Assembly: GCA_963745835.1 (NCBI GenBank)
Contig: CAVUZH010000003.1
Coordinates: 32,001 to 96,000 of the forward strand
DNA length: 64,000 nt
Origin: an uncultured delta proteobacterium
GTDB lineage: Bacteria; Desulfobacterota; Binatia; UBA9968
Direction of reading: 5' to 3'
Shown piece by piece: positions 57,687 to 60,345 of the stretch. The notes beneath the pieces were generated by a model. The model saw only the letters and a program-made list of their open reading frames with translations. It searched no databases and was not told the origin of the DNA. The number at the start of each line of letters is the position of its first letter. Position 1 is the stretch's first letter. Position numbers and translations under genes: made by a program.

Positions 57687-58679
57687 ATGAAAGCGATTCG
57701 AGTGACCGGGCCGTTTCTCTGTGCGCTAATGTGTGCCGCGACCCTGGCGCAGGGGCAAGATCTTAAAAAGATCAAAATCGGCTATCCCGCGGTATCCTAC
57801 AATCAAATTCATATCTGGGTAGCCAAAGAGGCTGGATTGTTTCGCAAGTATGGCCTGGATGCCGAAGTCATTTTTTTCCGTGGCGGCGGGATGGCAACTC
57901 AGGCACTGGTTGCCGGCGATCCGCCGATCGTTAACATCGGCACAGTAGTGCTCGCGGGATTACAGGGTTACGACGTCGTTCTCATTGGCTCCTCGGAGAG
58001 TACCTATAATTACTCTGTGGTGGCGCGCCCCGCGACTACAAAACTCGAGCAACTCAAGGGAAAACGATTGGGCGTAAGCGGTTTCGGATCAGCATCGCAT
58101 ACCGCCGCGCTAATCCTTCTCAAAAAATTTAACCTCGAACCTAACAAAGACGTCATGCTCGTGGTTTCCGGGCCCACTCCCGACCGCTTGGCGGCGATGG
58201 AGTCGAACCGCATTGACGCCACCATTCTGACTCCGTCGGAGACCCCGAGAGCGCGCAAGCAGGGCTTCATTGAAATCTTTGACATGCTGGATCTAGGAAT
58301 CGAGGTGCAAGGGAACGGCTTTGCCACTTCCCGGACGTTTATTCGTAATCAGCGGGAAACCGCCTTGAGCGCGTTGAAGGGCTACGTTGAGTCGATCCAC
58401 TATATCCATAAGAATCGAGACGAAACCAAGAAAATTGTCGGTCAATACCTGCGCAGCGCGGATGCCGAAGCTCTCGAAGCGACTTATATCGCGTTCGTCA
58501 AAAGTGTCGCCAAGCGGCCCTACCCGACGCTAAAAGGAATTCAGTATTTGCTTGATGATTTAGCTGTGAAAAATCCGCAGGCAAAAACTGCCAAACCCGA
58601 ACAGTTCGTTGATCTGAGTTTGCTGCAGCAGTTGGAGAAAGAGGGATTCTTTGCCGAAATGGCAAAGCGCTACCCGTAG
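57687..58679 (+). CDS. ABC-type substrate-binding protein, NMT1/SsuA-like
   Basis: Signal peptide; WVAKEAGLFRKYGLD, QLKGKRLGVS. Confidence 0.87.
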   Translation: MKAIRVTGPFLCALMCAATLAQGQDLKKIKIGYPAVSYNQIHIWVAKEAGLFRKYGLDAEVIFFRGGGMATQALVAGDPPIVNIGTVVLAGLQGYDVVLIGSSESTYNYSVVARPATTKLEQLKGKRLGVSGFGSASHTAALILLKKFNLEPNKDVMLVVSGPTPDRLAAMESNRIDATILTPSETPRARKQGFIEIFDMLDLGIEVQGNGFATSRTFIRNQRETALSALKGYVESIHYIHKNRDETKKIVGQYLRSADAEALEATYIAFVKSVAKRPYPTLKGIQYLLDDLAVKNPQAKTAKPEQFVDLSLLQQLEKEGFFAEMAKRYP

Positions 58680-58732
58680 TCGTGATTTGTTTGTAACGCA
58701 CTGTGGTACCATATTGATGTAGGAAGAAGGTT

Positions 58733-59233
58733 ATGAATCAAAATATTGGCAAGCAATTCCCCGATTTCGAAATGGTCGATCATGACAGTCAACCGGTTAA
58801 GCTTTCGCAGTATGCCGGCAAATTTCCATTGATCCTGTCGTTCTATCGCGGGTACTGGTGAGGCAAATGCCAGGTGCAGTTGCGCCATTATGTCGAATTC
58901 CAGAAAGAGCTGGCGATTAACTATTGTAAGCTGGTGGTGGTGAGCGTCGATCCGCCGGAAGTCAATTCGGCCTTTCGAACCGGTCTCGGCGCCGAGTTTC
59001 CGTTTCTGACTGATCAAGATCGCAAAGTCGTTCAAGCCCTTGATATGACCGAAACCTCAAAGTCGCGCGGCATTACAGCAATCCCGTATACCTTTTCGTT
59101 GATGCCGGATCTGACGGTTCACAGCTTTTACTGTGGCTACTGGTACGTCGGCCGTCCTACTCTCGATGAGCTGCGCATGGATCTGCGCGCCATGATGAAA
59201 AGAGTGCGGTCCGACTTCGATCCTCAAGCTTAG
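58733..59233 (+). CDS. Probable selenoprotein: AhpC/TSA-like redoxin with UxxC motif
   Basis: ATG 58733 after GGAAGAAGG; FPDFEMVD...LSFYRGYW-TGA(58859)-GKCQ continues in frame to VVVSVD...FPFLTD...TAG; 166 aa. Confidence 0.8.
58862..58894 (+). promoter_or_regulatory. Candidate bacterial SECIS element
   Basis: Upper stem GGUGC/GCGCC closes loop AGUU, which starts 17 nt after the UGA; possible lower stem GGCA/UGUC. Confidence 0.55.
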
Positions 59234-59292
59234 AGCCAAAGGCCACTCAATTTGAGCTTGAAAGGGACGAATCAAGTCGGTAAGATTCGTTT

Positions 59293-59547
59293 ATGATCAC
59301 TCCGGAACAAATCAAAAGCACTCTGGAACAAGCGCTTCCTGGTTCCACCATCGAAATGCAGGATCTCACAGGAGGTGGAGACCACTGGCAGGTGTTCATC
59401 GTCTCGCCAGCGTTCGAAGGTAAGGGGTTGATCGAGCAACATCAGATGGTTTATGCGGCGCTTAAGGAGGAGATGGGCGATCAGCGTATTCATGCGCTCG
59501 CGCTCAAAACCTTTACACCGGGGCAGTGGGCGAAGCTTGGCTCATAG
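59293..59547 (+). CDS. BolA/IbaG family protein
   Basis: GGGDHW, VSPAFEGK, HQMVYAAL, IHALALKT. Confidence 0.92.
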   Translation: MITPEQIKSTLEQALPGSTIEMQDLTGGGDHWQVFIVSPAFEGKGLIEQHQMVYAALKEEMGDQRIHALALKTFTPGQWAKLGS

Positions 59548-59573
59548 GTTCGCAGACAAATAAGGAGAAGGTT

Positions 59574-59897
59574 ATGGCAGAAGATGTCCTGAACGAAATC
59601 GATTCCAAGGTCAAAAACAACAAGGTAATGCTGTTTATGAAGGGCACGCCGGATTTTCCCCAGTGTGGCTTTTCGGCTCACACGGTGGAGATCTTAAGAT
59701 CCTACGGGGTGCCGTTTGCTACGGCAGATGTCTTGGCCGATGCTGCGGTGCGGGATGGAATCAAGAGGTATTCGAACTGGCCCACCATTCCACAGGTTTA
59801 TATCGACGGAAAATTCGTCGGCGGCTGCGATATCGTGCACGAACTGCATGAGCGGGGCGAGCTGGAGCCGATGCTCAAGTCGGCTCTAGGCAAATAG
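59574..59897 (+). CDS. grxD: Monothiol glutaredoxin
   Basis: LFMKGTP, CGFS, WPTIPQ, GGCD; TAAGGAG RBS. Confidence 0.95.
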   Translation: MAEDVLNEIDSKVKNNKVMLFMKGTPDFPQCGFSAHTVEILRSYGVPFATADVLADAAVRDGIKRYSNWPTIPQVYIDGKFVGGCDIVHELHERGELEPMLKSALGK

Positions 59898-59943
59898 ACA
59901 ATCAAGTTCATCGGGCCAGGCCACAATAACTCGTGTTATCAAT

Positions 59944-60345
59944 ATGAGTAAAGTCTTCGCGCCATTAATCTTCACCATGGCAGTGGCGCTATTAAGTTCC
60001 TGTGCAATGCTCAGAAGCTTGACTCCCGGCCACGACAGCTTCGAAAAGGGAATGGCTTCGTTCAATCAAGGCCAGTTCGATTCCGCGATTCAATATTTCA
60101 AGCAGTCGAGTTTAGAGAATCCTAATTCAGCGCAAGCTTATCTCTATCTAGGCAGATCCTACGTCAGCGTAGGCCGCTGGAAATCTGCGATCCCACCGCT
60201 GCGCACCGCGTTCAGACTGTCACCGAACGAAGCTAAAGGCGAGATCATGAATCTAATCGTCGATGCAGTTTTCGCGGCCGCGACATATTATCCCGGATTG
60301 GGAGAATACGGTTTGTTGCGTGACCTCTACAAAGATTTGCTTTAG
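59944..60345 (+). CDS. TPR-repeat lipoprotein
   Basis: Lipobox LSSC; TPR pattern AQAYLYLGRSY...A...A...P. Confidence 0.8.
   Translation: MSKVFAPLIFTMAVALLSSCAMLRSLTPGHDSFEKGMASFNQGQFDSAIQYFKQSSLENPNSAQAYLYLGRSYVSVGRWKSAIPPLRTAFRLSPNEAKGEIMNLIVDAVFAAATYYPGLGEYGLLRDLYKDLL

Follow-up and report, generated by a model that had tools for sequence, protein, structure and literature searches.

Peroxiredoxin-like (Prx-like) proteins that carry selenocysteine (Sec, U) in a UxxC motif are a kind of selenoprotein known since 2004-2005. A Sargasso Sea study described a 'Prx-like protein' selenoprotein class (PMC1088965), the GOS study assigned 225 sequences to 'Prx-like 1, pfam00578, UxxC' (PMC2398784), a comparative study of 2006 named a 'Prx-like thiol:disulfide oxidoreductase' in Geobacter, Syntrophus and Desulfotalea (PMC1794560), and a 2026 review retains a class with PF00578 and UxxC/UxxU as 'predicted with high confidence' (PMC13188914); these papers are cited from the parts of them available to us. 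Here we describe a gene of this type in an uncultured member of the Binatia, at positions 58733-59233 of a 64,000-nucleotide stretch of contig CAVUZH010000003.1 (positions 32,001 to 96,000 of the forward strand; hereafter, the window). Its reading frame is crossed by an in-frame TGA that we predict to be decoded as Sec, and it belongs to a clade of close relatives that standard annotation cuts short.

By its PF00578 domain and UxxC motif the gene is a member of the known Prx-like class, the published members having been compared by their descriptions only. It agrees with the Prx-like thiol:disulfide oxidoreductase selenoproteins, as characterised in the available parts of those papers, in its PF00578 domain, in having UxxC and not TxxU, and in a coding-region selenocysteine insertion sequence (SECIS) directly past the UGA. 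It departs from them in that the Cys relatives of the Binatia clade carry C-P-K-[D/E] rather than CxxC, in that the clade has a GYWxxGRP signature and its genes are usually followed by bolA and grxD, and in that the clade is limited, in the samples searched, to one Binatia order and a few metagenome-assembled genomes (MAGs) labelled as other phyla.

The other described redox families each share something with the window protein, but none of the NCBIfam models reaches its cut-off on the full-length sequence. PrxQ and BCP have the same peroxiredoxin fold and a Cys at the peroxidatic position, but are 16-26% identical to the window protein, carry Pro and Thr where it has Arg39 and Sec43, and score 25.7 bits against a cut-off of 260 (PrxQ) and 31.5 against 140 (BCP). 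PrxU, with its TxxU motif, is likewise an AhpC/TSA-family selenoprotein, but its Sec is peroxidatic, whereas the Sec of the window protein sits three residues upstream and a Cys occupies the peroxidatic site (NF040737, 24.7 against 270). The SelL-related model NF040769 represents a Sec-linked Prx-like redox family and is the best NCBIfam match for both the window protein and its Cys relatives, yet at 42 bits against 120 the window protein is not a member. ResA and TlpA have a W-C-x-x-C type centre on a Prx-like or thioredoxin (Trx)-like fold, and ResA chains occur among the matches in the Protein Data Bank (PDB), but these proteins are exported or membrane-anchored, unlike the window protein, which has no signal peptide (ResA, 37.8 against 170; TlpA, 21.4 against 230).

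Because this kind of selenoprotein was already known, the novelty of the gene is lower than the initial annotation of the window had implied. What is new is modest: an uncatalogued, order-wide clade in uncultured Binatia, without a curated model, whose noteworthy features are its C-P-K-[D/E] sister proteins, its GYWxxGRP signature and its bolA-grxD neighbourhood. Our literature search returned no link between Binatia and selenoproteins; the one paper that mentions both Binatota and selenocysteine has the latter word in a reference title only, and the supplements of the published surveys may list such sequences.

A reading frame through a conserved TGA

On the + strand, the frame from the ATG at 58733 to the TAG at 59231-59233 comprises 166 codons plus the stop and holds a single TGA, at codon 43 (58859..58861). 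The read-through product has 166 residues, is predicted to be a cytoplasmic UxxC redoxin of AhpC/TSA fold, and has the centre ...FYRGYW-U-GK-C-QVQLR..., in which U43 would be partnered by Cys46 (TGC, 58868..58870) in a U-x-K-C arrangement. A purine-rich run, AGGAAGAAGG (58721..58730, + strand), ends 2 nt before the ATG and reads as a putative Shine-Dalgarno element. Under translation table 11 the locus is instead cut into two open reading frames, 58733..58861 (42 aa) and 58874..59233 (119 aa), the second of which begins at a GTG (58874..58876) that lies within the hairpin described below and acts as a false start for gene callers.

Both sides of the TGA behave as parts of one gene. In pairwise comparisons of orthologs, divergence at codon positions 1/2/3 is 0.286/0.174/0.548 over codons 2-42 and 0.229/0.173/0.533 over codons 52-166, and the two segments are therefore under the same protein-coding selection. 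The Pfam AhpC-TSA domain (PF00578; 80.5 bits against a gathering score of 26) extends over residues 5-129 and so crosses the TGA. These results bear out the initial annotation, which had read a ribosome-binding site and start codon at 58733, a frame continuing past the TGA and a single 166-aa selenoenzyme; that last reading also draws support from the conserved TGA and hairpin, the sel machinery and the Cys found in relatives. It had further placed the TGA at the first Cys of an FYRGxWCxxC family motif. Codon 43 does correspond to that first-Cys position, but the motif itself does not describe the clade's Cys relatives, which have C-P-K-[D/E].

When 61 genomes belonging to this order were searched in six frames, an ortholog was recovered in 58 of them at 56-99% identity, each match with exactly one TGA (56 of 59 when the unpublished genomes G012 and G018 are dropped). 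The same search gave no ortholog match in G009 (82% complete) or G043 (95% complete), and a paralog-type match only in G026 (71% complete). The codon-43 column reads TGA in all 50 fetched loci (49/49 without L034) and in all 80 named loci of the species-representative collection; the two sets share members and together comprise 93 loci of distinct sequence. Across orthologs spanning 54-99% protein identity, the TGA column and the hairpin are retained down to 54%, and the TGA is invariant whereas neighbouring synonymous sites vary among loci. Cys46 is likewise invariant in our 37-sequence protein alignment (A2).

Independent assemblies agree at this site. Contigs from two further DNA studies (X9 and X13) cover 58859-58861 and 58873-58886 without a variant, and a metatranscriptome library (X17) has a 990-nt contig that runs unbroken across 58602-59400 with 35 differences, none of those listed falling inside the TGA or the hairpin. 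A check for TGC or TGT at 58859, proposed together with the original prediction, thus returned TGA in contigs of two DNA studies and one RNA library, which rules out an assembly artefact. Contigs from RNA run X15 leave 58843-58977 uncovered, a hole from which we draw no conclusion.

Directly downstream, after an 11-nt spacer, lies a hairpin at 58873..58886 (+ strand) that folds with a GGUGC stem arm (58873-58877; GGTGC in DNA), an AGUU loop (AGTT, 58878-58881) and a GCGCC arm (58882-58886), placing G at loop position 2. Its stem starts 14 nt past the T of the TGA, and the distance from UGA to loop is 16 nt. The stem-loop and its G had been recognised initially, but the stem had been placed 17 nt downstream; 17 is the distance from the A of the TGA to the first loop base. 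An 11-nt spacer before a minimal stem-loop is also found in E. coli fdhF. The bSECIS model, as set out in the available part of its source (PMC13188914), specifies a loop of 3-9 nt, an upper stem of 4-16 bp, a UGA-to-loop spacing of 16-37 nt, a G among the first two loop positions followed by G/U, and an energy limit of -7.5 kcal/mol; the window hairpin, with its 4-nt loop, 5-bp stem, A-G-U and 16-nt spacing, agrees with this geometry.

The hairpin is conserved along with the codon. In minimum-free-energy folds of the 45 nt from the UGA, made for 82 distinct orthologous segments, the loop begins 16 nt past the UGA in 80 (the exceptions being L098 and L149), with the loop sequence AGUU in 74 and AGUUAC(G) or AGGUC[CA] in 6. 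Codon choice is narrow across it: among 48 sequences (L034 and the partial L027 excluded) codon entropy is 0.25 bits at V48, 0.0 at Q49, 0.34 at L50 and 0.48 at R51, as against 1.17-1.49 bits at other conserved Val codons of the same gene, 1.57-2.28 at Leu and 1.43-2.47 at Arg, and third-position divergence is 0.09 at codons 48-51 versus 0.53-0.55 in the rest of the gene. Five loci with Methylomirabilota, Rokubacteria, Verrucomicrobiia or Entotheonellaceae labels have a different stem, GUGCC...GGCAC, at the same 11-nt spacing, so that the structure is conserved there without conservation of sequence. When the stem is modelled with 7 bp, the outer two pairs are C-G/A-U in some families and G-C/U-A in others (GC:14/CG:6; UA:13/AU:9), and they fail to form in 24 and 21 of the 44 distinct rows, the window's genus included; one inner pair changes from G-C to A-U in L050, and L101 and L107 have the same GACGC...GCGTC stem. 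The UGA with the following 39 nt folds at -12.1 kcal/mol, and the 7-bp forms of other genera at -11.5 kcal/mol or below. The comparison of homologs suggested at the outset has thus been made, and both elements are kept (TGA in 50/50 and 80/80 loci, hairpin in 80/82 segments).

The source genome (G000) carries a complete selenocysteine machinery, as a search for selA, selB, selC and selD, also suggested at the outset, established. The genes selA, selB and selD form a cluster on contig C22 (C22:65479-70161) with profile scores of 608, 394 and 383 bits, each above its curated cut-off, and contig C13 has a tRNA-Sec with anticodon UCA (called by ARAGORN; 74 bits with Rfam). G+C content is even, at 0.525-0.556 over all 25 contigs, and so gives no sign of a foreign origin for C22 or C13 in a bin whose estimated contamination is 9.3%. 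Across the order, selA scores above cut-off in 58 of 61 genomes (56/59 without G012 and G018). The genome also holds other candidate Sec genes. selD itself has a Sec-TGA at the canonical ...KAAG-U-AAK site, with a GUGCA-AGUUU-UGCAC hairpin about 25 nt on, and two fdhA genes (C18:417030-419831 and C23:50053-53342), which encode formate dehydrogenase alpha subunits, carry TGA at the classical ...QARL/I-U-HSSSV position, each with a GGUCU-loop hairpin after it. In selD, the two fdhA genes and a paralog on C18 described below, the hairpin after the Sec-TGA has a G within the first two loop positions. In the fdhA match on C18 the matched frame includes a further TGA, at aa 136. A second Rfam match to tRNA-Sec (C24:91233-91318, - strand; 47.3 bits against a gathering score of 47) is not called as tRNA-Sec by ARAGORN and is probably a long-arm tRNA (Ser or Leu).

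Competing explanations for the UGA

Judged from sequence, 58733-59233 is very probably one selenoprotein gene with Sec predicted at codon 43, and we put the probability of this at about 0.92. Were the UGA to terminate translation, the locus would instead yield a 42-residue peptide and a separate 119-residue protein from GTG 58874, which is how table 11 and the database entries examined present it. That GTG is indeed conserved (45 of 47 sequences use it for V48), but its conservation is explained by the hairpin in which it lies, and no Shine-Dalgarno sequence precedes it, the bases in question being the Cys46 and Gln47 codons and the stem. The 119-aa piece would have neither strands 1-3 nor either active-site residue, although the full-length protein is modelled as one domain with a mean predicted confidence (pLDDT) of 91.5; together with the Pfam domain that crosses the TGA, the matching selection on codons 2-42 and the remainder, and a TGA that is invariant in all loci despite varying synonymous sites nearby, this makes termination very improbable. 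In a MAG with this level of estimated contamination one might suspect an error of sequencing or assembly, or a pseudogene left by a nonsense mutation of recent date, the more so as two relatives (P0003 and P0015, described below) have frameshift-like C-terminal tails. The TGA nevertheless recurs in 58/58 order orthologs and 80/80 named loci, from many assemblies and at 54-99% identity, is read in contigs of two further DNA studies, and is flanked on either side by sequence under purifying selection. This explanation is already refuted, barring one artefact common to all the independent assemblies, and we treat its probability as negligible.

Read-through could also occur without Sec, for instance by near-cognate insertion of Trp or Cys, or if the lineage used UGA as a sense codon; the inserted residue is deduced from sequence, and the hairpin is small. 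TGA is, however, the commonest ordinary stop in the source genome, where it ends 1425 of 3436 long frames, so it is not a sense codon in this organism, and the neighbouring SDR and Amdase genes, with full-length domain matches, both terminate in TGA. The Sec machinery is complete in the genome and present order-wide, relatives have a redox-active Cys at the site, as is characteristic of Sec positions, and the hairpin satisfies the bSECIS geometry in the available part of its description (PMC13188914). We consider non-Sec read-through highly unlikely and retain the prediction of a selenoprotein.

Several observations weigh against this prediction or temper it, and most concern the hairpin. It is minimal: its 16-nt spacing is the lower limit of the bSECIS model as given in the available part of PMC13188914, in the genus of the window the two outer pairs are mismatched, which leaves 5 bp, and its energy is -6.5 kcal/mol for the bare 14 nt and -8.0 with two flanking bases per side, on either side of the -7.5 limit of that model. 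A 62-nt fold has a shuffle z-score of -1.5, which is not significant. With a covariation score of 0.091 the stem outscores every one of 500 shuffles, yet a +3 slide control reaches 0.140, and RNAalifold retains 4 pairs only, at -3.5 kcal/mol and with a covariation term of about zero; formal covariation is weak because the core stem is invariant. Scanning 58000-60000 with Rfam (E up to 10) brought no match, a null that is uninformative for bacterial SECIS hairpins of small size. Elsewhere, three carriers of the TGA gene, G007, G015 and G032 (96, 100 and 86% complete), have no selA match, which is either mildly contrary to Sec decoding or a matter of assembly gaps. RNA libraries can hold DNA, and the X17 contig is thus not proof of transcription. 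The nearest Cys relatives hold Asp or Glu at the C46 site and are not plain Cys versions, so the Sec/Cys pair involves a second change. Finally, the chemistry is much less certain than the gene: a selenenylsulfide cycle, run either as a reductase or as a peroxidase, is what the active site would suggest, and the pairing with bolA-grxD points only weakly to a role in thiol and iron-sulfur (Fe-S) homeostasis.

Active site, Cys relatives and proposed chemistry

The single-chain AlphaFold2 model, built from alignment A2, places U43 immediately before a helix at residues 44-57. Foldseek searches with it returned BCP/PrxQ, AhpE, Prx6 and ResA structures (TM 0.72-0.87, E 5e-13 to 1e-10, at the low identities given above), and a profile search of PDB sequences gave the same family set, with 2ywn and 2cx3 as top matches. 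HMMER aligns FYRGYW-U-GK-C with the BCP motif FYPAAF-T-QV-C, which puts the Sec at the peroxiredoxin Thr position (the T of TxxC and the first position of a Trx-type CxxC) and Cys46 at the position of the peroxidatic Cys. The catalytic Pro and Thr of peroxiredoxins are thus replaced, and of the P-x3-T/S-x2-C motif C46 alone is kept. The domain begins at residue 5, with neither a signal peptide nor an N-terminal extension, and the absence of a signal peptide indicates a cytoplasmic protein.

On the established bacterial mechanism, SelB carrying Sec-tRNA(Sec) would bind the hairpin 11 nt past the UGA, and codon 43 would be decoded as Sec. The product would then combine a BCP/PrxQ-type fold with a thioredoxin-like redox centre, U43-G-K-C46, in which Sec caps the N-terminus of the helix and the Cys lies in its first turn. 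The U43 selenolate may attack an oxidised substrate, either a disulfide or sulfenic acid or a peroxide, after which C46 would resolve the adduct to form an intramolecular selenenylsulfide, and a thioredoxin or glutaredoxin system may re-reduce it.

A different function on the same gene is that of a true peroxidase, in which U43 would be peroxidatic and carry out GPx-like chemistry on a peroxiredoxin scaffold instead of acting as a protein-disulfide oxidoreductase. The nearest folds (BCP/PrxQ, AhpE and Prx6) and the Cys retained at the peroxidatic position speak for it, and Sec stands at what is presumably the position used by GPx in its UxxT motif. Yet the catalytic Pro and Thr are missing (FYRGYW-U against FYP...T) and the peroxiredoxin models (BCP, PrxQ and PrxU) score far under their cut-offs. 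In addition, the published class with a UxxC motif is regarded, in the available part of the Sargasso Sea paper, as a thiol:disulfide oxidoreductase (PMC1088965). The present observations are compatible with both chemistries, and we view the peroxidase function as possible but rather unlikely.

Searching the A2 profile against 1.84 billion representative sequences gave 7177 matches at E <= 0.001, 52 of them at E <= 1e-30. Residues were counted in the best 150 of these 7177 matches, of which 97 cover column 43 and 53 stop short; several of the short ones begin VQLR or MQLR and so resemble truncated Sec forms. Column 43 is Cys in 92 of the 97 full-length matches and is not Cys in the other 5, and column 46 is Asp or Glu in 89/97 (C/E in 48, C/D in 41), with C/A in 1. 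The C...C form occurs in 2/97 only, both of them long and distant, and a UxxC form occurs in the C18 paralog. The C-terminal signature G-Y-W-Y-V-G-R-P (codons 135-142; 59135..59158, + strand) is shared with the Cys-type C-P-K-[D/E] relatives: G135, G140 and R141 are invariant in A2, and of the 111 profile matches covering residues 140-142, 96 read GRP there, so that the C-terminal motif does mark a subfamily, as the initial annotation had suggested it may.

In a quick maximum-likelihood tree of 82 rows, with the active-site columns kept, one branch (SH-aLRT 88) separates 39 Cys-type rows from all 42 Sec rows, and a single state change accounts for the distribution of Sec and Cys; the root falls on a very long paralog branch and is unreliable. 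One could go further and propose a separate, uncatalogued family with a single origin from a single-Cys C-P-K-[D/E] redoxin, by coupled Cys-to-Sec and Asp/Glu-to-Cys changes, that is order-wide and works with BolA and Grx4 as a selenium-dependent module. If true, such a module would sense oxidants or repair Fe-S or thiol damage; we hold this proposal to be doubtful as a whole, and keep to membership of the known Prx-like class.

Two sets of relatives stand somewhat apart. Ten Cys-type relatives, all metagenomic, come from clusters labelled 'peroxiredoxin' or 'peroxiredoxin/cold shock CspA family protein'. In one of the C-P-K-[D/E] proteins (P0122), whose cluster bears the latter label, the redoxin is fused to a C-terminal cold-shock domain (CspD model, 42 bits), and in P0132 and P0144 such a fusion was seen by eye only; a redoxin-cold-shock fusion is unusual. 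The second set is represented in the source genome by the paralog on contig C18 (C18:329262-329735, - strand; L151:466-1053, - strand), a candidate UxxC Prx-like selenoprotein of 195 aa and 29% identity to the window protein, with a signal peptide, the motif FYRGHW-U-PYC and, after the TGA, an 8-bp hairpin with a GGC loop. No NCBIfam model scores above cut-off on it (the best is ResA, 64 against 170), and similar matches, each with at least one TGA, occur at 13 other places in 11 related genomes.

Gene neighbourhood, distribution and hidden records

The gene lies between a substrate-binding protein gene and bolA-grxD, as had been noted initially. Upstream, 57687-58679 encodes an NMT1/THI5-type substrate-binding protein. 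Downstream on the + strand, 59 nt past the Sec gene, is bolA (59293..59547; Pfam BolA, 69 bits), followed by grxD for a Grx4-family monothiol glutaredoxin with a CGFS site (59526..59897; TIGR00365, 143 bits against a cut-off of 117), probably translated from the ATG at codon 17 of that frame. Sufficient flanking sequence was available for 89 distinct loci; 68 of them have a same-strand bolA no more than 900 nt downstream of the gene, and this arrangement extends to a distant genus at 56-61% identity; grxD comes next in 50/89, and the binding protein lies upstream in 20 of 84. None of the three accompanies the gene in the five loci labelled as other phyla. Between the Sec gene and bolA, a promoter and terminator scan of 58500-60100 showed no terminator on the + strand and one weak promoter-like site (59258-59286), in both cases at about chance level. 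By profile score the upstream binding protein resembles SsuA/NMT1 (68 bits, cut-off 163); it also faintly matches SaoX (31 bits against 300), which is the binding protein in a selenoprotein operon already described.

Relatives of the gene are encoded in 358 stretches of the species-representative collection. The closest loci come from uncultured MAGs named 'Candidatus Binatia', 'Deltaproteobacteria' and 'Syntrophobacteraceae', from soil and groundwater, and none of 200 further genomes, sampled evenly from the phylum, gave a match at E <= 1e-25, a restriction that holds for that sample only. Sec orthologs at 58-60% identity (L128, L130, L143, L148 and L149) stand on contigs labelled Verrucomicrobiia, Methylomirabilota, Rokubacteria and Entotheonellaceae, which could reflect horizontal transfer or mislabelled bins. 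The other-phyla variant is also carried by an RNA-library contig of X17, as a loose end at 58861.

The initial annotation had anticipated that annotation pipelines would truncate the protein, and database records are indeed short. Of 466 database homologs, the best 120 measure 117-142 aa and span 66-72% of the protein, and all six database proteins that we fetched start [M/V]QLR, that is, at the GTG of codon 48. The near-identical relatives P0003 and P0015 have unrelated 30-residue tails past ...RAMMKK, equivalent to about 59195-59233 in the window; these look like the product of a frameshift at a 3' A-run, possibly through homopolymer errors in those assemblies.

These findings leave knowledge of selenoprotein synthesis unchanged. 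Their interest lies in the clade itself, where the U-x-K-C proteins and their C-P-K-[D/E] sister group offer a clean natural comparison of the benefit of Sec over Cys, and where the conserved bolA-grxD neighbourhood is a testable functional lead. The 117-142-aa database fragments have neither active-site residue, and these fragmentary records, together with the lack of an NCBIfam model at cut-off, make the gene invisible to standard annotation. Part of the selenium use of the Binatia, a widespread soil lineage, is thereby hidden, and a model for the clade would correct at least 466 database clusters and 358 stretches in species-representative genomes.

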